From: Alphaproteobacteria bacterium
GTDB lineage: Bacteria > Pseudomonadota > Alphaproteobacteria > UBA7887
Assembly: GCA_965216755.1 (NCBI GenBank)
Contig: CBDCGL010000011.1
Coordinates: forward strand, 4,416,001 to 4,480,000
Direction of reading: 5' to 3'
Length of the DNA stretch: 64,000 nucleotides
Part shown: positions 35,016 to 46,318 of the stretch, piece after piece
Numbering within the stretch: position 1 is the first letter of the stretch
How the letters are laid out: each line of letters opens with the position of its first letter
Position numbers and translations under genes: made by a program
Notes under the pieces: generated by a model
Told to the model about the DNA's origin: nothing
The model's input: the letters and a program-made list of their open reading frames with translations, nothing else
The model's database searches: none

Positions 35016-36967
35016 ATGTCGCCAGAAAAGGTGCAACCAAAACTCGCGGTCATTTTGTGCGCCGAGATCATCGGCTACGACCGGTTGAACAAAGATGACG
35101 CCGATCGGACCGGGGCCACGATCGCGCGTTACCACGACATGGTGGAACGGCGTTTGGCGGCCCGTGGTGGCGCGGTTATACGCAAAGCGGCAGACGAAAT
35201 GGTCATGCGATTTGCCAGCGCCGTCGACGCCCTGCGCACGGCAGTCGCAATCCAGGCCGATTTAACGGAATCCAATGCCGCGCTGCCCAGTCACCGTCGC
35301 CTCCATGTGCGCATGGGGGCCGATCTGGGCGAAGTCAGCGAGGCCGGCGATGGCGGGCTTGCAGGTCCACCTTTGGCGGTCGCCACCCGACTGATGTCGT
35401 TTTCCGCGGACGAAGCGATATGTGTGTCGGAAGCGCTCGTCGCCCAATCGCGTCGCGATCTCTATCTGACTTTCGAGTTCCTTACGGCCCTGTCCATAGC
35501 GGGTATTGATAGACCGGTCAATGTTTACCGGATCACCACGGGTATTGCGCGTCCGGCAACACCAGGCGCGCATGCGTCGCGGCGGATGTCGGCCGTGGGG
35601 TTTGGCGCGATCGCTGCCGTTATGACACTCTTGGCGGCAGCTGGCGTATGGCTGTGGTGGACCCAGCAGGGTGCGGTGAACGTAACCGCACCGGCGCCGG
35701 CGCTCGATCAACAGACAAACGAGCACGCGGACGCGGATGATCCCGTATTCGCTATGCCGAGTGGGCCATCGATCGCCGTATTGCCGTTCGTCAACCACAG
35801 TGGCGATCCCGACCAGGCCTATTTTGCCAGCGGACTGGCTGTGGATATCACCACACGCTTGTCGCGCTATCCGGAACTGCGCGTGATCACAGGCCGCGCC
35901 GGCTCACAGTTTGACACGCCGCTGGCCATAGATCGGAATATGGCGAGCCAAATCGGCGCGCGGTTTTTACTGGAAGGCGGCGTACGCAAGAGCCGAGACG
36001 ATGTGCGGGTCACGGTGACGTTGGTCGACGGTACCAGTGGCGAGACTCTGTGGGGCGAGACCTATGAAAGGGCGCTCACCGCGGCCAACTTGTTCGCCGT
36101 CCAAGACGATATCACCGAGCGTGTGGTCGCCGTGGTTGCCGATGTGCATGGCATGATTCGCAAGGTGCAGCTTGAGGAATCGCTAAAACGCTACGTGGAC
36201 AACCTGGCTGCGTTCGATTGTGTCTTGCGGGCCAACGCCTACTACCATGTGTTGACCGAAGACGAACACGGGCGGGCGCGCGACTGCCTCGAACAAGCTA
36301 TTCAAGATGAGCCGGACTATGTCGAAGCTTGGTCTTTGCTGGCATCCATCTATGTCGACGAACATTCTCTCGGCTTCAATCCCCGCGCGGATTCGCTGAC
36401 GAGGGCGGTCGACGCAGCCCGCAAGGCCGTGTCTTTGGATCCGAACAGTCAGCTTGGTCACTATATGCTTGCTCATGCATATTTTATCCGCCGGGAGATG
36501 AATGCGTTTCGCACGTCATCGGCGCGCATTGAAGCTCAATCCGAACAATACCGATGTCTTGGCAAATGTTGGCATGGAGCTCGCCTATAGTGGCGACTGG
36601 GCCCGGGGTATCGCGTTGGTTGAGAAAGCGCGCACGCTCAATCCATTTTTATCCCAGCTGGTATTATTTTCCCCTGTTGCTGGATGATTATCGCAAGGGC
36701 GACGACCAGGCCGCGCTGGCAGATGCGTTGAAACTCGATACGCCGGAGTTCTATTGGACTCAGATCATGTTGGCGCAGATTTATGGTCAACTCGGCGAGA
36801 CGGGGGCGGCGCGCGAAGCCGTCGACAAATTGGCCGTGCTGTATCCCGGTTTCAGCCTTGACGCCGCGCGCGACGAATATCGCGTTTGGAATATTTCCGA
36901 TGAGCTGATCGGGCGAGCCTTGGACGGCTTGCGCAAAGCGGGCGTGCCGGAAGGCACGTGGAATTGA
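35016..36967 (+). pseudogene. Class III cyclase-like/TM/TolB-like/TPR protein, split by two frameshifts (~36521-36528 and ~36646-36650)
   Basis: Cyclase-like N-terminus, TM helix, PSIAVLPF.N.SGD. The TPR region continues across ORFs 35016-36590, 36502-36687 (RALKLNPNNTDVLA) and 36554-36967 (YPSWYY...GLRKAG). Confidence 0.8.
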
Positions 36968-36982
36968 CATTCTCGAGGGCAT

Positions 36983-38869
36983 ATGCGCGAAGATTCTCAC
37001 AGACGCCTTGCGGCAATCATGGCCGCCGATGTTGCTGGCTATTCGCGCCTGATGGGGGATGACGAGGCCGCAACGGTTGCTACGCTGACGGACTATCGGG
37101 CGGTTTTCGCGGATCATGTGGTTCGGCATCGCGGCCGGGTGGTCGACAACGCCGGTGATAGCGTCTTGGCTGCGTTCGACAGTGTGGTCGAGGCAGTGCA
37201 GTGCGCGCTTGCCGTACAAGATGATCTTGCCGCGCGCAACAAGAGCTTGCCCGAAGTACGCCAAATGCATTTTCGTATCGGTGTCAACTTGGGCGATGTT
37301 ATTGCCAAACCTGATGGCACTGTTTACGGCGATGGGGTCAATGTTGCGGCGCGGCTCGAGAGTCTGGCACCGCCCGGGGGCGTCATGGTCGCCGACATTG
37401 CGCGACGCGCCGTCGGTGATAAGCTCGCGGTTCATTTCCATGACGCCGGCCGCCACGCGGTGAAGAATATCGCTGAGCCGGTGCATGCATTTCGCGTTAG
37501 CGATCAGGCCTCAGGTCCGGCTCCGGGCGCTGGCGATCGACGCACCAAGATGTTTGTCATCGGATTTGTCCTTGTGCTCGTCGCCTTTGCCGGCGCCGTC
37601 GGGATCAGTAAATGGCGCGAGTCGCATCGCGATGCGGCAACCATCGCAACGGATATGGCGTTGGACCCGACCGTCAGCTCACGGTCCGATCCGTCGATCG
37701 CCGTGCTGCCGTTCGATAATCTTTCGGGAGACCCAGAGCAGGACTATTTTGCCGACGGCATCACGGAAGATCTGATCACGGATCTGTCAAAGTTGCCGGG
37801 ATTGTTTGTGGTCGCGCGCAATTCGGCATTTGCTTACAAGAATCGCGCTACCGACGTACGCCAGATCGCCCGCGAGCTCGGCGTGCGTTATGTGCTCGAA
37901 GGCAGTGTGCGCAAGGCAGACCGTCGGGTCAGGATCAACGCGCAGTTGGCCGATGCCGACAGCGGTGGTCACGTTTGGGCCGAACGGTACGACCGTGAGC
38001 TCAACGACATCTTCGCGCTCCAAGATGAAATCGGCCAAGAGATTGTCGATGCTCTACACATTACTTTGGACGAAGGCGCCATCGCCCGCTTGGCCCACAA
38101 AGAAACAGAGAGTCCGGCGGCCTACGATGCCTATCTGCGGGCGCGGGCCTATCTTTTCAGTTTTTCACAACAAGGCATTAGCGAAGCGCGAAGATTGGCG
38201 GAACAGGCCGTCGAACGCGATCCAAATTACGCGCGCGCCTTTGCACTACTCAGTATCATCCATTTTGTTGCCTGGGAGTTTCAGTGGCTTTCAGAATCTG
38301 ACCTCTTACAAAAGGCCATCGAATTCGGCCAGCGTGCGGTTAACCTTGACGATGGTATGGCCGAGGGCCACACCTGGCTCGGCTGGGCATTGCTGTGGAA
38401 CAAGGAGCATGATCGGGCGCTTGCGGCGCTTGAGCGTGCCGTCTCGTTAGAGCCAAATTTTGTTTATGGGCTAGCCATGTTGGGGGAAGCCCTGAACTTT
38501 AACGGCCAGCCGGAACGGGCCATGGCTTTCCTTCAAAAGGCCATTCGGCTCGATCCGCACTACGATTCTAGCATCGTCCATGACCTTGGTCATGCGTACT
38601 TCCTTTTGGGCCGACATGACGAGGCCGTTGAGGCCTACCAAGACGCACTTGCGCGCGGCCCCAATTTCATGCCGGCCCATAGGGGGCTCGCAGCGACATA
38701 TGCGGAGCTGGGCGACACCGAACGCGCCAAGGCTGCCGTCATTGAGTTGCTCCGCATCAATCCGCGAGCGTCATTGGCCGTATGGATGGAAAGACTGCCA
38801 TACCGAGACGAAGCCACTTTGACGCGCCTTATTGCCGCCCTCGGCGACGCCGGCATCCCAGCACAATAG
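36983..38869 (+). CDS. Adenylate/guanylate cyclase-domain protein with TM helix, TolB-like domain and TPR repeats
   Basis: RRLAAIMAADVAGYSRLM, AGDSVLA.F, FRIGVNLGDV, YGDGVNVAARLE, KNI..PV, PSIAVLPFDNLSGDPEQDYFADG, TPRs. Confidence 0.93.
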   Translation: MREDSHRRLAAIMAADVAGYSRLMGDDEAATVATLTDYRAVFADHVVRHRGRVVDNAGDSVLAAFDSVVEAVQCALAVQDDLAARNKSLPEVRQMHFRIGVNLGDVIAKPDGTVYGDGVNVAARLESLAPPGGVMVADIARRAVGDKLAVHFHDAGRHAVKNIAEPVHAFRVSDQASGPAPGAGDRRTKMFVIGFVLVLVAFAGAVGISKWRESHRDAATIATDMALDPTVSSRSDPSIAVLPFDNLSGDPEQDYFADGITEDLITDLSKLPGLFVVARNSAFAYKNRATDVRQIARELGVRYVLEGSVRKADRRVRINAQLADADSGGHVWAERYDRELNDIFALQDEIGQEIVDALHITLDEGAIARLAHKETESPAAYDAYLRARAYLFSFSQQGISEARRLAEQAVERDPNYARAFALLSIIHFVAWEFQWLSESDLLQKAIEFGQRAVNLDDGMAEGHTWLGWALLWNKEHDRALAALERAVSLEPNFVYGLAMLGEALNFNGQPERAMAFLQKAIRLDPHYDSSIVHDLGHAYFLLGRHDEAVEAYQDALARGPNFMPAHRGLAATYAELGDTERAKAAVIELLRINPRASLAVWMERLPYRDEATLTRLIAALGDAGIPAQ

Positions 38870-39000: not shown

Positions 39001-39170
39001 AATCCTGCCGATTGCGACTATTGCGCCCCTGAGAACCGCAAACGGATCGAGCGCGTTTTCAACCGTCTCATACCGCCCCGCCGCCTTGCCACGCGCTACG
39101 ACGATTACGCGAAACCCTTCTTTGGCTGCCTATAGCTTGCCGTCGAAATGCTGCAGTTATGCGACTTGCA
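39001..39170 (+). mobile_element. IS5-family transposase relic (C-terminal fragment)
   Basis: NRKRIERVFNRL...RRLATRYD...FFGCL*LA matches the IS5/IS427-group C-terminal signature R.RIER.FN.LK.FRR.ATRYD; contains a stop and has no N-terminus. Confidence 0.7.
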
Positions 39171-39927
39171 GTAGGTCGTTTGGGAGGAACTGATATGTGC
39201 GTTCGTCCGGTCAAATGCGCGTTCCGCGGCGGCGGCGTTGCAGGGGTCGGACTGGGCAGTATCCGCAAACCAGTGGCGAGTTTCTCGATAGTCAATAGCC
39301 GTATACGCGCATTTTGCTTTGAATAATACACGTTCCATGTTTCGTCTCGCCGACTTACTCACCCACGGATCATTTTCAGCAAAGTGGGCCAGGAACGATG
39401 CCTTGTTTTGCGCAAGACATCCCGCTCGCGCGGCGTAGTACAGAATGTTGATCGAACTGGCAGCTAAAGCCGACACTACTAACTGTCTGCGTTTGGCCGC
39501 GGCCGAACGTCAGTAGTTCGTCGATGTTTGAAATGAGCGACTTGTACATTGGCACCTTGCGCGGCATCCGGCGCAAATGCTCAGCTTCCGCATCATGTGA
39601 AGCGGTTCGGCCACTGAAAAGATCGCTCAAACCGGCCGCAAATCCCTGTCCGGACAGTTGGTCGGCAAAACCGTAAAAGGACTGAGCCAATCGCCGCCAT
39701 GAATGGATGACTAAACCGAACCAACCGGCGACCTTACATTGCAGATGATTTTTATCGCAAGTTTGCCGGTGGTGCTCAGGACCGGGTTCGCGAGGAACTA
39801 CAAACCTGCTGGCACCCCTTGTCAACGGGGACAGGAACAATATCCAATTCACTGCGCATCACTCTCGCTGCAGGGTACCGATGGTACATAGCGGCGATGT
39901 GATTAGGTGGATCGTCCGTTTAACGTC

Positions 39928-40262: not shown

Positions 40263-43256
40263 TTAACCGACAGCGCCCATGATGTGGGTCAGTCCGGTCG
40301 ACACCCGGCGCACAAGATCATAAAGCCGGTACAGCGGCACGAACAATTCACGATGTTCCTTGTCGTAGCCCTGTTCGACATCGGTGCGATAGGTCGCCGG
40401 CTCACCGAAGGCATCGCCGGCAACCGGTTCGACCGCGGCCGGGAAGGCGCGGCGCAGAACCTCTAGTGCACGATCGACATCAAGCTGCAACAAGTCGGTG
40501 ACCACATCATGGGTGGTGGCGTCGGGTTGGCTTGAAAACCGAGGAATGCGGACGGCCAACAGGAATATTTCCTGGACGAGCGCGATACGTAACGCGTGCA
40601 GCAAAGCCAAATCGGCACGACAGGCTTCTACGATCGATGGCAGAGTCTTGGCAGCGTTGATGGCGTCGAAGCCCGCGCGCAAGTCAATCATGTCGGCAAA
40701 GAATGTGCGCATGACGCGATTGAGGCACTCATGACGCTGCGTTTCCTCCAAGAGCCGTGCCAACCGACGCATTTCTTGGGCGCGGCGCGGCTCGTCGGTG
40801 GTGAAGGCGCGCCGTAGCCAAGATACCGGGTTGAGCAGGGCGACATAGGCGCCCAATACGTCGAGGCTACTTAGCCGCTCCGCATGACGGACCAAGGACA
40901 TGATCCGTCGGCAACGGTCTGAGCCTTGATGGACCTCAACAAACCGATCCAGGTCGCGCGCGATCGCACGGCCAACGCCGCCGATACTGTTCGCCAGTAG
41001 TCCCGATTGCTGCAAAATCGAATTGTGTGGAATTGCCCGCATTTGCGTCGGATGGGCGTGGTCGATTCCGGCGATGGAATCGTGCTGGCGCCGCACCCGG
41101 CGTGATCCGGTCGGATACAAAAGATTGGTGCCAAAGGCATTCAACAAGACAGCATAGTCCGGATCGTCCATCATCCGTTCGTTGAACGTTTTGGCGGTAA
41201 TAAAGAACTCCAGCGAATAGTCGGTGTCGCGATAGAAAACATCATCGTGCGCGCCAGGCGGTGCCGCGCTCAGTCCATGTTCAAGCAAGCGACATACGGT
41301 TGCAAAGGCGATCGTGGGTGTCGTGAAATAGACATAGCCATCTCCGCCCTGAAAGCTGAGTTCCTGTTTGACGGGCAGCTTGTCGTGGGCGAATTGTGCG
41401 CGGCTGGCCGGCGTGGCGACGTAGTCGAGGCGGTCACGAAACGAAACCGGATGGGCGCCTCGACCGATCGACTCACCGTGGGTGTCAAAAATCACCAACT
41501 CGATCGATTGCCCATCGGCGGCGCGGATGTCGGCTTGCGTCAGTGCCCGGCCTACTTTGATACGTAACCGTTCAATGGCTAACGAAGCCGCAATTTGGCC
41601 CGACATGCGCCCAGCATCGGAAAAGCCGGTTTGAATCGCGATGCGGCCGCGCTGTTGCACATAGGCCCGATAATGTGGGTTGCCGAGCAGTTCGGCGACA
41701 ATGTCATGACCATGTTCCAGTGCGCGCGGCGTTTCAAATAGTGGCGAAATGTCGATGCGATCTTCAATGCCAAACAGCTTGGCAAAATAGAGCGCCGCCA
41801 GCGGCACAAAGGCGGAATCGGTTTCGGCGATCAGAAAACGAATTGGAGTCTCCGAATCGGCGAATTTCAACATTTGTGCGACCAGCATGAACAGACGCTT
41901 GGCCGACGTGCGTTCGGTCATCACCGAGCCGAAATTGATGGTCTGGGGCTGCACGCCGTCAAGCAGCTCGTTGAGGTGGCGCAGGTCACGGCGCCGACTG
42001 CCTGGGTCGTCGGGTGTCGTGTCGACGGGCATGTGGCGGCGCACCGCGTTTTCAATTTGAGTGGCGTTCAGGCGGACGTGGGTGTGCGCGACGCCGATGC
42101 CGTATATGGTCATTTCCGCGCGCAACACAGCCAACCGGCGTTGATGGCTGTGCGGCGGATTGAGGCTGATCACGCGTGACAGTAACGCCGTGAGCTCATG
42201 GGCGTTGATCAACCGGGAGTCGCTGTTTTCCGCCATTTGCCGCGCGAAGGCCTGAACCTCTTCTGGATCGTCGGCGTCGTCGGGCAGGGCGGCAATGTCT
42301 TCCTCCACGATCCGCAGGGCCAGAACCAGGCGGCTCTCGATCAGCTTCAGGTTGGGGCTGATATCCGCATCAAGTGCGTCATCGCCGTCCATGCTGGCAA
42401 TGATTGTGCGCACTTCGCCGAGAAAATGTTGATGTTGCAGGACGGCGACACGAAGCCGTGCGCGCAAGGTGTCGGTCCAGCGAATATCGGCGCGTCCGTC
42501 CAGGTCATAGCCGACCCAACTGGCGACGGTAAGCGGTGCCGGAACGAGGTCAGTCCACGTGTCCGGATAGGCGTCGGCCGCGACGCCAAACAACACGTCC
42601 AATGCGCGGCGCACCGCATCTTGAATATTGGCTATGGCACGTAGCGCGAAGTCTTGTTCAGTCGCTAAGTCGAGCGGTGCGCGGCGGCCGTGCCGGCGCG
42701 CCGCAGTCCGCGCCAGAATCGCATCACGGTCGGAGTCGTTCAGGGCTTTACCCTTTACGTCAGAGTCGGTGGCTAGCTGGACCAAGTCCTCCGTCAGGCC
42801 TTCCGACATGCCGAAAGTCGGATGTGCCGTGATCACGATTCCCAAGGCGGCTCGCGAGGCTTGCCGTGCAAATTGTTGAAACGACAAAGATTTCCCTTTG
42901 CCGTCACGCGTCAAGCCTTCAAACAACTTTTGTAGTTGTCGGGTGTTGTGGGTCAGCCGGGTCTCGCCGAGATAGGCACCTAATCGTGTCGCCCGAAACC
43001 GAAAGGCACGCAGGTTGAGCAGGCGAACCAGGCCATCAAGGTCGTCGAGACTGACCGCGCCGGTTTCGAATCGCCGTGAAATATCTAGCGCCAGCCGCTC
43101 TACGGGGTTCTGATAGGGATTGTCAGCCGCCTCAGCGTGATAATCGTCAAGGGCGGTGCTGAGCGCGGTTCGCAACGTTTCAGCCGGGGCTGTGTCGGCG
43201 CGATCCTGTTTGGTCTTGTTCGATGGTTTCCGGGAGGTCGGGCTTTTCGCGGGCAT
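40263..43256 (-). CDS. ppc: Phosphoenolpyruvate carboxylase-family protein (divergent type)
   Basis: ITAHPTF, SWVGYDLDG, ISPLFET, GFSD, SIGRG, RAIP, C-terminal G; RBS AAGGAAAGG. Confidence 0.8.
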   Translation of the reverse strand: MPAKSPTSRKPSNKTKQDRADTAPAETLRTALSTALDDYHAEAADNPYQNPVERLALDISRRFETGAVSLDDLDGLVRLLNLRAFRFRATRLGAYLGETRLTHNTRQLQKLFEGLTRDGKGKSLSFQQFARQASRAALGIVITAHPTFGMSEGLTEDLVQLATDSDVKGKALNDSDRDAILARTAARRHGRRAPLDLATEQDFALRAIANIQDAVRRALDVLFGVAADAYPDTWTDLVPAPLTVASWVGYDLDGRADIRWTDTLRARLRVAVLQHQHFLGEVRTIIASMDGDDALDADISPNLKLIESRLVLALRIVEEDIAALPDDADDPEEVQAFARQMAENSDSRLINAHELTALLSRVISLNPPHSHQRRLAVLRAEMTIYGIGVAHTHVRLNATQIENAVRRHMPVDTTPDDPGSRRRDLRHLNELLDGVQPQTINFGSVMTERTSAKRLFMLVAQMLKFADSETPIRFLIAETDSAFVPLAALYFAKLFGIEDRIDISPLFETPRALEHGHDIVAELLGNPHYRAYVQQRGRIAIQTGFSDAGRMSGQIAASLAIERLRIKVGRALTQADIRAADGQSIELVIFDTHGESIGRGAHPVSFRDRLDYVATPASRAQFAHDKLPVKQELSFQGGDGYVYFTTPTIAFATVCRLLEHGLSAAPPGAHDDVFYRDTDYSLEFFITAKTFNERMMDDPDYAVLLNAFGTNLLYPTGSRRVRRQHDSIAGIDHAHPTQMRAIPHNSILQQSGLLANSIGGVGRAIARDLDRFVEVHQGSDRCRRIMSLVRHAERLSSLDVLGAYVALLNPVSWLRRAFTTDEPRRAQEMRRLARLLEETQRHECLNRVMRTFFADMIDLRAGFDAINAAKTLPSIVEACRADLALLHALRIALVQEIFLLAVRIPRFSSQPDATTHDVVTDLLQLDVDRALEVLRRAFPAAVEPVAGDAFGEPATYRTDVEQGYDKEHRELFVPLYRLYDLVRRVSTGLTHIMGAVG

Positions 43257-43408
43257 CGCGCCTTTCCTTTTTGGCCGTGGCCACAACGATGAAGAAAGTC
43301 CGTCAGCGTCTGACGGTAGCATATGCTGCGACGCACAAAAGACCAAGGCCGTACGGACGCGGCGCGGCCCTCTTGACCGGCATGGGCCAGCTACGCTCAT
43401 ATGACACG

Positions 43409-43960
43409 ATGACAGACGAACCACAGATCCGCGATGTTCTCGACTTTTGGTTTTCGCCGGACGTCAAAGCGCAATGGTGGAAACCGGAAGAGGGGTTCGA
43501 CGACTTATGTCGCGAACATTTCGCCGCCCTTCATGGCCGGGCGGCTTCCGGCGCATTGGATGCCTGGGCCGAAACGGCGGACGGCGCTTTGGCGCTGGTG
43601 ATCCTGCTCGACCAGATTCCACGCAATATCCACCGCGGGACGCCGGGGGCTTTTGCCACCGACGCAAAGGCACGCATCGTCGCCGAGGCTGTCATCGACA
43701 AAGGCTTGCATGAATTGCAGCCGACCGGTCGCCGTGTCTTTTACTTTATGCCTTTCGAGCACAGCGAGGACTTGGCTGATCAAGAGCGTTCAGTGGCGCT
43801 GATGAAAACCCTCGGGGACGAGGGCTGGAACGGCTATGCCCAACAGCATCGCGATATCGTCGCCCGTTTCGGCCGTTTTCCCCATCGTAATGCGATCTTG
43901 GGGCGGGAAAGCACGCCGGAAGAGATCGAATTCCTGAAGCAGCCCGGCTCGTCGTTTTAG
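43409..43960 (+). CDS. DUF924 family protein
   Basis: VLDFWF, LALVILLDQ.PRN..R, FYFMPFEHSE, H..IV.RFGRFPHRNAILGREST.EE. Confidence 0.93.
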   Translation: MTDEPQIRDVLDFWFSPDVKAQWWKPEEGFDDLCREHFAALHGRAASGALDAWAETADGALALVILLDQIPRNIHRGTPGAFATDAKARIVAEAVIDKGLHELQPTGRRVFYFMPFEHSEDLADQERSVALMKTLGDEGWNGYAQQHRDIVARFGRFPHRNAILGRESTPEEIEFLKQPGSSF

Positions 43961-44160
43961 CGCGGATTGGCCGGGGGCGATGCTTCTGTGGCGCCAGATC
44001 CGCGCTGCAGCTCGAGCCATTTGCTGACCCCGACAGCACCACCAAACAGCACCAATACGGCCACGAACCCGACGACAAAGATCTTGGTGCGGCGATCGCC
44101 GGCATGGGCCGACGACCCGTCTTCGCGGTGTTTGGCGTCCGGCAGATGTGAACTTGCCAT
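43957..44160 (-). CDS. 67-aa single-TM microprotein homologous to the TM segment of the cyclase at 36983..38869
   Basis: RBS GAAGGGGG 5 nt before ATG 44160; 24/31 aa identical to the cyclase segment encoded at 37529-37621, with 11 synonymous codon differences. Confidence 0.7.
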   Translation of the reverse strand: MASSHLPDAKHREDGSSAHAGDRRTKIFVVGFVAVLVLFGGAVGVSKWLELQRGSGATEASPPANPR

Positions 44161-44269
44161 GCTGTCCCCCTTCGCGCGCTCATTATGGTGGCTTTGGCCC
44201 ACTGCGGCCAAGGCCAATTGTGGTCTGGCTGGGTGAGCGTGTATTGGGGGAAGGGAGTGGGTGTGGTTG

Positions 44270-44430
44270 GTAAATAAAAATACCGCCAATCAATGTAGTC
44301 AATAAGTTGGGATCGCAATATGTGATCACTATTACATATTTATATACAACTTTAATAAAATAACACTCCACTTTCCCTCAATTGTGTGACCACCATTACA
44401 TAAAACTTTATTGAATAATTACGCACCTTC
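44270..44430. promoter_or_regulatory. AT-rich divergent promoter region (microprotein / cpaF)
   Basis: Strongly AT-rich tract (ATTACATATTTATATACAACTTTAATAAAATAAC) in a GC-rich genome, between divergent genes. Confidence 0.5.
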
Positions 44431-44482
44431 CGCCAAATTACTTCTCGATTGCTGTTGGGTTTTTCGGAAGGGACTTCGCAAA

Positions 44483-46318
44483 ATGTTCGCTCTGCGCAAA
44501 AAGAATTTCGATGACAATCCGGGCCGTGACGCCGCCGTCAATGATCGCCTCAATCGCCTCGCCGAACGCGCCCATGCCGTTCAGGTCGCCCGCGCCGAAT
44601 TGGCCGCCAAAGCCCAGTCTCACGACACACACAATGTCGAGACCGCGCCCCACGCCAACATCTCTGGCGCCAACCCGGTCTCCATGCCGGCCCCAGAAGC
44701 GCCGGTCGCCGATCACACCCCGGCCGTAGACGCCGCGCCCGCGCCCGCCACCGTCTCCCTCGCCGAGGCCGAGGATCTTGAAGTTCGCGCCGCCATGCTC
44801 GCCCAGGAGCGCGATCTCATGGCCCAGGTCATGGCCGTCGCCGACAGCTCGGTCACAGGTCCCGCACCTCAGGCCGCCGCACCGGCACCCGCCGCCGACA
44901 CGGCCCACAAGCCCCATCCGCGCCGCCGCGCCGCCGACCAGCTCGCCACCTTGGCCCCCAATGCCGAGGCCACAGGCGCCGACACCAGCACCAATCTGCC
45001 CGCCGTCGCCAATGCCGCCCCCGTAACCGCCGCCAAACCCCGCGCCAAGCGCATCTCACCCGTCGTCCAAGACCTCCAAGAGCGCGTCCAGCTCACCCTC
45101 ATGGAGCGCATCGACGCCGAGAAAGCCCTGACACTGGTGCGCGACGACCTGATCCGCCAGATCACAGATCTGGTCGCCGAGATCGTCGATGAAATGGGCG
45201 TCGTCCTCAACGGCTCCGAGCTCGACCAACTGGTCGACGTGCTGGTCGACGAAATGATCGGCTTGGGCCCGCTCGAGCCCTTGCTCGCCGACGAGGCCAT
45301 CACCGACATCATGGTCAATGGCTGCAACCGGGTTTACGTCGAACGTGGCGGCAAGCTCGAGCGCACCAATGTCAGCTTCCGCGATGACGAACAGCTGATG
45401 CAGATCGCCACCCGCATCGCCACCGCCATCGGCCGCCGCATCGACCGCTCACAGCCTTTGGTCGATGCCCGCCTCGTCGACGGCAGCCGCGTCAATATCA
45501 TCATTCCGCCGCTCGCCATCGACGGCCCATCGATCTCGATCCGTAAGTTCTCCCAGCACACCATCACCCTCGATCAGATGGCGTCGCAGGGCAATATCTC
45601 CCCGGCCATGGCCGTGGTCTTGAAAATCGCCGCCCGCTCGCGCCTCAACATCCTGATCTCAGGCGGTACCGGCTCCGGTAAAACCACCCTGCTCAACGCC
45701 ATGTCGCAGCTGATCGACAATGACGAGCGCATCGTCACCATCGAGGACGCCGCCGAATTGAAACTCCAGCAGGACCATACCGTGCGCTTGGAGACCCGGC
45801 CCGCCAATCTCGAAGGCCAGGGCGAGATCACCATGCAGGACTTGGTCAAAAATGCCCTGCGTATGCGCCCCGACCGGATCATCCTGGGTGAGACCCGTGG
45901 CGGCGAGGCGATCGACATGCTGCAGGCCATGAACACAGGCCATGACGGCTCCTTGTCGACCATCCACGCCAACCGCCCGCGCGAGGCCTTGACCCGGCTC
46001 GAGAACATGGTCGCCATGGCCGGCCTCAATCTGCCCTCGCGCGCCGTGCGCACCCAGATCACCGAGGCCATCGACTTGATCGTGCAGGTCCAGCGCATGC
46101 GCGACGGTGTCCGCCGCGTAACCTCGATCCTGGAGATCGTCGGCATGGAAGGCGACATCATCACCGCCCAGGAGCTGTTCAAGTTCGAATATGACGGTGA
46201 CGATGAATCGGGCCGTATCACCGGCAACTTCGTCGCCTCCGGCCTGCAACCCAAGTTCCTCGAAAAGGCCCGCTATTTCGGCCTCGATCGGGCCCTGCAG
46301 GACGCCATGGGCGTCTAG
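44483..46318 (+). CDS. cpaF: CpaF/TadA pilus-assembly ATPase with long Ala/Pro-rich N-terminal extension
   Basis: GLGPLEPLL.D..ITDIMVNG, DARL.DGSRVN, ISIRKF, Walker A GGTGSGKTT, TIEDAAEL, ALRMRPDRIILGE, AMNTGHDGS..TIHAN. Confidence 0.93.
   Translation: MFALRKKNFDDNPGRDAAVNDRLNRLAERAHAVQVARAELAAKAQSHDTHNVETAPHANISGANPVSMPAPEAPVADHTPAVDAAPAPATVSLAEAEDLEVRAAMLAQERDLMAQVMAVADSSVTGPAPQAAAPAPAADTAHKPHPRRRAADQLATLAPNAEATGADTSTNLPAVANAAPVTAAKPRAKRISPVVQDLQERVQLTLMERIDAEKALTLVRDDLIRQITDLVAEIVDEMGVVLNGSELDQLVDVLVDEMIGLGPLEPLLADEAITDIMVNGCNRVYVERGGKLERTNVSFRDDEQLMQIATRIATAIGRRIDRSQPLVDARLVDGSRVNIIIPPLAIDGPSISIRKFSQHTITLDQMASQGNISPAMAVVLKIAARSRLNILISGGTGSGKTTLLNAMSQLIDNDERIVTIEDAAELKLQQDHTVRLETRPANLEGQGEITMQDLVKNALRMRPDRIILGETRGGEAIDMLQAMNTGHDGSLSTIHANRPREALTRLENMVAMAGLNLPSRAVRTQITEAIDLIVQVQRMRDGVRRVTSILEIVGMEGDIITAQELFKFEYDGDDESGRITGNFVASGLQPKFLEKARYFGLDRALQDAMGV

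Follow-up and report, generated by a model that had tools for sequence, protein, structure and literature searches.

The 64,000-nucleotide stretch of alphaproteobacterial DNA analysed here (the window; forward-strand positions 4,416,001 to 4,480,000 of contig CBDCGL010000011.1) contains a small-protein gene, P0001, and a receptor-type class III cyclase gene, P0002, whose products contain closely similar membrane helices. P0001 occupies 43957..44160 on the reverse strand, where the open reading frame (ORF) comprises 67 codons and a stop and translates into a protein of 67 residues. P0002 (36983..38869, forward strand) encodes 628 residues, which are organized as a catalytic domain, one membrane helix and a periplasmic module containing TPRs. 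The gap between the two genes, from the cyclase stop at 38869 to the end of the small ORF at 43957, is 5.1 kb.

The initial annotation of this DNA had credited P0001 with its own ribosome-binding site, and a Shine-Dalgarno-like GAAGGGGG is indeed present at 44166..44173 on the reverse strand, 5 nt before the ATG. Further upstream, at 44182..44211 on the same strand, the promoter-like TTGGCC-18-CATAAT agrees with the consensus at 9 of 12 positions; it is a consensus match only, one such site having been found upstream of P0001 against a mean of 0.6 in shuffled sequences. The codon-usage score of the P0001 frame, 0.214 per codon, is the best of the six frames at the locus, and is reached by 2.9% of off-frame windows. 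Real genes average 0.273 (standard deviation 0.139); among real windows of 67 codons, P0001 stands at the 29th percentile. The ORF runs towards a convergent DUF924 gene (43223-43960, forward strand), overlapping it by 4 nt at the DUF924 stop, and diverges from a CpaF/T2SSE-type ATPase gene (44411-46318), from which it is separated by an AT-rich spacer. An AlphaFold2 model of P0001, built with the family alignment described below, consists of a single helix spanning residues 18-57, with block means of the per-residue confidence score (pLDDT) of 97 and 91 over residues 31-50. Contigs covering the P0001 region were identical to the window and displayed no polymorphism, and an Rfam scan of 43000-45000 returned no match.

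The catalytic domain of P0002 (residues 11-161; 37013..37465, forward strand) scores 39.3 bits against PF00211, for which the cut-off is 21.9, and the protein is thus a member of the class III nucleotidyl cyclases at the gathering score of that family. The periplasmic module (residues 234-628; 37682..38866, forward strand) has as its nearest relative the second of two modules in a 1058-residue paralog, C11_42615, to which it is 60.7% identical, compared with 36-40% for the other paralogs listed.

The helix common to the two proteins covers 31 codons in each gene, corresponding to residues 20-50 of P0001 (44011..44103, reverse strand) and residues 183-213 of P0002 (37529..37621, forward strand). 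A codon-by-codon comparison reproduced the counts given in the initial annotation: 24 of the 31 residues are identical, and 11 of these 24 are specified by different, synonymous codons. At the DNA level 69 of 93 nucleotides are identical, and 15 of the 24 differences fall at third positions. The earlier statement that the likeness stops at the boundaries of the transmembrane segment also stands. The flanks are unrelated, the two proteins agreeing at 2 of 19 residues N-terminal to the segment and at 2 of 17 C-terminal to it, and the similarity between P0001 and P0002 thus ends where the helix does. When the 67 residues of P0001 were compared by tblastn with the 5.0-Mb genome from which the window derives, the cyclase was the sole other copy (E 2.8e-12), the next match having an E value of 0.13. 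Conversely, residues 181-233 of P0002 retrieved only the P0001 ORF by blastp among 98,886 six-frame segments (E 2e-12, with composition-based statistics on).

It could be argued that two hydrophobic helices have come to resemble each other by chance or convergence and that P0001 is spurious, since membrane helices are biased in composition and short ORFs abound in GC-rich DNA (there are 101 ORFs of at least 40 codons in 11 kb). The E value of about 2e-12, however, was obtained with composition-based statistics, no helix of any other paralog matches, and the relatives described below align without gaps over some 30 positions that include the invariant polar residues S46 and E50. The similarity of the two helices is far beyond chance, and we regard the notion of a fortuitous likeness as barely credible.

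The pattern of substitution points to selection at the level of the protein. By the NG86 method the 31 codons comprise 23.8 synonymous and 69.2 non-synonymous sites, at which 14 synonymous and 10 non-synonymous differences have accumulated, giving a dS of 1.15, a dN of 0.16 and a dN/dS of 0.14. Neutral drift of P0001 would predict 20-30 non-synonymous differences rather than the 10 observed (P 0.003 to 5e-7, depending on the dS assumed), although it should be emphasized that the 31 codons entered this test because they are similar. The initial annotation had also asked for dN/dS across relatives. Within the genus designated g6, whose members of the family are introduced below, 12 of 15 pairwise comparisons of the core gave a dN/dS of 0.05-0.38; of the remaining three, two gave 0.58 and 0.77 and one was saturated. 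Judged from these codon comparisons, the helix is under purifying selection in both P0001 and P0002, and the earlier view that the small ORF is a selected protein rather than a decaying copy is upheld.

These data bear directly on the proposal that a segmental duplication, or a third cyclase gene, has been decaying at this locus and that P0001 is a piece of it that has stayed open by luck. Such an origin could be entertained for a genome that contains 21 further frames of the P0002 cyclase family, split and truncated ones included (C11_2958233 and C11_2957044), and a possible rearrangement point lies 59 nt upstream of the P0001 ATG. At a dS of 1.15, however, a remnant would be expected to display the two- to threefold excess of non-synonymous differences given above. 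In addition, P0001 possesses its own ribosome-binding site and gene-like codon usage, and a profile derived from other genera, described below, scores it above the cyclase. The initial annotation had named degraded cyclase or TolB sequence beside the ORF in relatives as the sign of such a remnant; in the window itself, no trace of a cyclase or of its periplasmic domain was found in 43000-45500, the best match having an E value of 0.04 over 16 residues. A decaying remnant is thus very improbable.

The paralogs provide a measure of how unusual the helix is. Eighteen were aligned, of which 16 bear a helix, giving 120 pairs. In the 84 pairs whose catalytic domains are 55-65% identical the helices share on average 21% of their residues (maximum 40%); this average rises to 48% (maximum 74%) in the eight pairs with catalytic domains that are 80-99% identical. 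The catalytic domain of P0002 is 50-64% identical to those of 15 paralogs, and its helix is only 6-25% identical to theirs, compared with 77% to that of P0001. Comparison of these sequences indicates that the membrane helices of the cyclase paralogs drift fast and that the helix of P0002 is unusually constrained. Among some 20 cyclase paralogs with freely drifting helices, one has thus been held nearly constant.

We considered whether the helix of P0002 had been swapped in. This was dropped as a firm claim. P0002 is just as far from C11_42615 in its catalytic domain (60%) as in its periplasmic module (60.7%), and a helix identity of 16% to C11_42615 is normal at that distance, so that no swap is needed. 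P0002 may instead be an old duplicate that has lost the first of the two modules.

Several further observations concern the cyclase paralogs themselves. Just upstream of the window lies a tandem pair (C11:4409966-4411876 and C11:4411873-4413780) whose catalytic domains are 99% identical and whose helices are 52% identical; in other pairs the domains are 90-93% identical and the helices only 27-52%. Near-identical domains with divergent helices suggest either that the catalytic domain has undergone gene conversion or that the helices are diversifying. Directly upstream of P0002, P0014 (window 35016-36590, forward strand; 524 residues) is a paralog by phmmer (223 bits) with a different helix, in which a Pfam scan at E up to 0.01 identified TPR families only; it may be a degenerate, non-catalytic paralog. 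Two other cyclase paralogs (C11:4367464-4369314 and C11:4155540-4157300) possess a catalytic domain and a periplasmic-type module with no membrane helix between them.

P0001 belongs to an unannotated family of single-helix proteins of 42-81 residues, which is represented in three genera of one bacterial family and by a few database proteins. With the other members it has in common a stand-alone ORF of approximately 40-80 residues, one membrane helix and a gapless core containing invariant residues, together with a significant score against an independently built profile. In a search of 41 related genomes with P0001, a match was obtained in the genome G003 (E 4.3e-7), and weaker matches were obtained in five genomes of genus g6. 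The member in G003 is a 42-residue ORF, identical to the database protein P0008. It is preceded by the ribosome-binding site GGAAAGG, and its GTG start and the TGA stop of an enolase-superfamily gene overlap in the sequence GTGA. In genus g6 the family is represented in six of six genomes by an ORF of 50-60 residues located directly upstream of a CoxE-like VWA gene. The stop of this ORF overlaps the start of the VWA gene (CCGTGA or TCGTGA) in five of the six (L003, L004, L005, L006 and L058), the overlap being absent in L007. An alignment of the family sequences with the cyclase segment requires no gaps across approximately 30 positions.

A profile search of the 23 genomes of the order, which are also those of the family, identified members in g6 (6 of 6 genomes), in G003 and in the present genome. 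In two further genomes the profile matched a cyclase helix weakly, at 28 bits in G010 and at 18 bits in G016; nothing was found in genera g2, g5, g7 and g8. Among 401 genomes across the class, with 16 candidates scored per genome, a match at E up to 0.001 was obtained in three. These are the genome studied here and two others with marginal matches (E about 8e-4), one lying in a 549-residue frame and the other containing stops. For an independent test, a second profile was built from six small ORFs of other genomes and run on the 98,886 six-frame segments. It assigned 40.6 bits to P0001 (E 8e-10) and 31.8 bits to P0002 (E 4.6e-7), the next segment scoring 14 bits (E 0.17), and no helix of the other approximately 20 cyclase paralogs was matched among these segments.

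A profile search of 1.84 billion representatives returned nine matches, comprising the known members, two new stand-alone proteins (P0011, 45 residues, and P0009, 68 residues), a 103-residue g6-like record and P0012. The last of these, from another organism, is a 230-residue protein in which a cyclase domain is followed by the family helix and then by a tail of 20 residues. Over the catalytic domain it is 41-45% identical to those eight paralogs of the present genome that match it best, and over the helix and tail it is 55-56% identical to both P0002 and P0001. Other searches gave little. Scans of eight family members against Pfam and NCBIfam identified no model for the family, and word-based homology searches with P0001, among proteins of near and of longer lengths, returned only P0001 itself. 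Among proteins of 345-1099 residues, the P0002 segment 172-232 yielded only one unrelated weak match, P0013. No relative was detected when metagenome contigs were scanned with P0001 and with alignment A4, a scan of genome contigs produced two unrelated proteins with only GAVGISKW in common, and a tblastn search of plasmids gave no match. The ESM Atlas returned unnamed clusters only, with scores of 0.88-0.90. The check for stand-alone and fused copies in this and related genomes that the initial annotation had proposed thus identified stand-alone members in G003 and g6 and the fused form P0002, to which the search of representatives added the fused form P0012. By these alignments and profile scores, homology of the helices is demonstrated, as is the existence of both stand-alone and fused forms.

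Across 12 sequences of the family R23, F32, F39, V43, S46 and E50 (P0001 numbering) are invariant, and R24, A40 and G44 are nearly so. The near-invariance of the last two bears out the small-residue motif (A/G40...G44) proposed in the initial annotation. Together with T/S25 and V29 the conserved residues form a stripe with a spacing of three to four, at positions 25, 29, 32, (36), 39, 43, 46 and 50, which in P0001 are occupied by T25, V29, F32, (L36), F39, V43, S46 and E50, with small residues in addition at 40 and 44. All seven differences between P0001 and P0002, at positions 27, 30, 34, 38, 40, 45 and 49, lie outside the eight stripe positions. When conservation was analysed for periodicity, its moment was greatest at 100-103 degrees per residue (permutation P about 0.002-0.003), and the stripe took in six of the eight positions that vary least (P 0.003); this test was chosen once the pattern had been seen. 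As read from the alignment, one face of the helix is conserved in the family. We infer that this face, with the adjacent small residues, is a surface for helix-helix packing.

Over 32 core columns P0001 and P0002 share 23 identities, P0001 and P0012 share 20, and P0002 and P0012 share 21; P0011 shares 17-19 with each of these three, and the g6 sequences share 19-26 among themselves and 10-15 with the rest. The helix occurs more often in a stand-alone protein (in this genome, in G003, in the six g6 genomes, and as P0005, P0009 and P0011) than in a fused one (P0002 and P0012). On the evidence of these sequences there has been at least one transition between the free and the fused form of the helix, in one direction or the other. 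The initial annotation had described P0001 as a copy of the transmembrane segment of this cyclase. The homology stands; a simple copy of this cyclase does not, given the stand-alone family in genera in whose genomes the profile found no cyclase with this helix.

This has consequences for the suggestion that P0001 is a partial duplicate of the P0002 helix, retained as a dominant-negative decoy that blocks productive dimerization. Consistent with such a role, P0001 and P0002 are mutually closest (23 of 32 core positions), both copies are under purifying selection and the small-xxx-small motif is conserved. Published accounts also describe a homotypic microProtein principle in plants (PMC4807768, PMC7584889) and the action of MgrB on PhoQ through its membrane region (PMC8404706). 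P0012, however, is nearly as close to both proteins (20 and 21 of 32), and stand-alone members occur in other genera in which no such cyclase was found. It follows that the split is old, that it may have gone in either direction and that the basic function is not specific to the cyclase, which weakens the view of P0001 purely as a decoy of P0002. We consider a dedicated decoy rather unlikely, and the data are accounted for no less well by a portable helix module, the alternative offered in the initial annotation.

In its strictest form the portable module would be an anchor without cross-talk. The helix would be a conserved cassette for insertion, for localization or for a third partner, P0001 and P0002 would act independently, for example under different conditions of expression, and P0001 would be unrelated to cyclic nucleotides. 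The excess of stand-alone carriers (at least 10) over fused ones (two) is in keeping with this, as are the genomes of G003 and g6, which hold the family without a larger protein bearing the helix, and the presence of members in operons with unrelated enzymes (enolase-superfamily and CoxE-like VWA). Should the conserved face bind itself or a partner, however, identical faces within one membrane would be expected to compete or to pair, so that independence would require separate expression, and in this genome the two genes are 5.1 kb apart. An anchor of this kind is a possibility to be taken seriously, if a minority one.

The explanation we favour, to which we give about even chances, is that P0001 is a genuine, selected small gene of a lineage-restricted helix family, and that its helix, common to P0002 by descent, serves association. 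P0001 would be a small single-pass protein of the inner membrane, with its N-terminus, containing the basic RR(T/S)(K/R) cluster, in the cytoplasm and a short tail outside. The family signature, T/S25-V29-F32-x-F39(A40)-V43(G44)-S46-E50, lies on one face of the helix, and P0002 and P0012 use the family helix, by common descent, as their membrane anchor. Its pattern of conservation suggests that the shared helix is probably a module for helix-helix association. With all eight stripe positions identical, P0001 and P0002 should either pair directly in the membrane or have a third partner in common. As class III cyclases function as dimers, either contact could tune the dimer state or the location of P0002.

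A more far-reaching version of the association model would have P0001 and P0002 form a bacterial homotypic microProtein-receptor pair. P0001 would pair with the P0002 helix through the conserved, heptad-like face and thereby set the monomer-dimer balance and the output of cyclic AMP or cyclic GMP. P0012 and the stand-alone forms would then be states of one exchangeable dimerization cassette that moves between genes. This version is speculative, and we think it doubtful in its entirety.

A number of points weigh against the association model. Compared with P0001 alone, the g6 ORFs match weakly (E 3e-4 to 4e-3 per genome); it is the profile and the gapless alignment that support homology to the g6 clade. 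In G003 and in six of six g6 genomes the profile has one match per genome, the small ORF itself, with no larger protein bearing the helix, and thus the basic function of the family cannot be specific to the cyclase. P0012 may be a truncated record, as it ends approximately where the periplasmic domain of the paralogs begins. The post hoc nature of the periodicity test has been mentioned, and six of the family sequences are from one genus and hence are not independent. The conserved face could, instead of packing against another helix, serve membrane insertion or lipid contact. Finally, the family occupies three different gene neighbourhoods in three genera, and gene context thus provides no hint of function.

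With respect to these neighbourhoods, no small ORF is present in this genome at the sites corresponding to that of G003 (MetE-like and enolase-like genes) or to that of g6 (upstream of the CoxE-like gene), and downstream of the DUF924 gene nothing is conserved in the relatives. A conserved linkage between small ORF and cyclase, considered because the small ORF of G003 lies 5 kb from the best match to a P0002 segment, was rejected, as that G003 cyclase, compared over its full length, is best matched here by a different paralog, and the synteny of the region is with another part of this genome. The CoxE homologue of this genome is preceded by a gene judged from its sequence to be CoxD/MoxR-like. 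In L003 the ORF that follows the VWA gene is presumably XdhC-like.

Among known systems, the nearest working analogy is MgrB, a 47-residue inhibitor of the sensor kinase PhoQ, whose membrane region is needed for contact with the dimeric sensor (PMC8404706). Similar to P0001, MgrB is a small single-pass membrane protein, and its mechanism is of the kind proposed here. The scans of eight members against Pfam and NCBIfam, at E up to 1, gave no match to MgrB or to another family of small regulators. To our knowledge MgrB is not homologous to PhoQ's own helices, and the best-studied small membrane regulators of sensors do not resemble their targets. In contrast, P0001 is homologous to the helix of the sensor, and its target would be a class III cyclase and not a histidine kinase.

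The sequence relationship of P0001 to P0002 is of the type described for the microProteins of plants (PMC4807768, PMC7584889) and animals, such as miP1a/b and those of the LITTLE ZIPPER type, in that P0001 is small, has a single domain and is related to a domain of a larger, multi-domain protein. Those microProteins, however, are soluble domains of eukaryotic transcription factors, whereas the part common to P0001 and P0002 is a bacterial membrane helix, and the family of P0001 is also present in genomes in which no larger helix-bearing partner was found. A limited search of the open-access literature retrieved no bacterial small protein described as homologous to the membrane helix of a sensor or a cyclase.

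P0002 resembles class III adenylyl cyclases in combining a PF00211 domain with a membrane anchor. The anchors that have been studied, as in the Mycobacterium tuberculosis Cya, are six-helix bundles, whereas that of P0002 is one helix, with a periplasmic TPR module behind it, and has a free-standing homologue. The function of the membrane regions of cyclases is stated to be unknown (PMC9433096). If the association model is correct, P0001 and P0002 would provide an experimental handle on the little-understood question of how the single-helix anchors of receptor-type cyclases control dimeric catalytic domains. A free protein homologous to the helix of its target would, moreover, suggest a simple evolutionary route to new regulators, in which a contact helix is copied or shared. 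Independent of mechanism, the analysis defines an unannotated small-protein family for which Pfam and NCBIfam have no model.

The CpaF-type ATPase gene that adjoins P0001 raised the possibility of a link to TadE/TadG-like proteins, as residues 25-49 of P0001 match PF13400 weakly. This connection to TadE/G, or to a Tad/Flp pilus, was rejected: the match reaches 16.1 bits against a cut-off of 22.3 and occurs in one of eight members, and no Tad/Cpa genes are present among the scanned neighbours of the ATPase gene. Genes of the LOG-like, 2-hydroxyacid dehydrogenase and PFOR-like types surround it, and the ATPase itself (44411-46318, forward strand) carries an N-terminal extension of about 280 residues that is rich in Ala and Pro.

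There may be some variation between strains upstream of P0001. Contigs from runs X3 and X4 match 44219-45200 with one mismatch and are unlike the window leftward of 44219, and one X3 contig spans 44093-44248 exactly as in the window. Position 44219, which is 59 nt upstream of the P0001 ATG, lies beside a TTGGCC...GGCCAA inverted repeat and may be a point of strain rearrangement. Between the two main genes, two short overlapping ORFs at 39105-39852 (reverse strand), one of which partially matches dienelactone hydrolase (profile positions 141-209 of 217), are probably a frameshifted pseudogene. The ATPase gene is preceded by a stretch of approximately 130 bp (44290-44420) that is very AT-rich, in a window of 60% GC.

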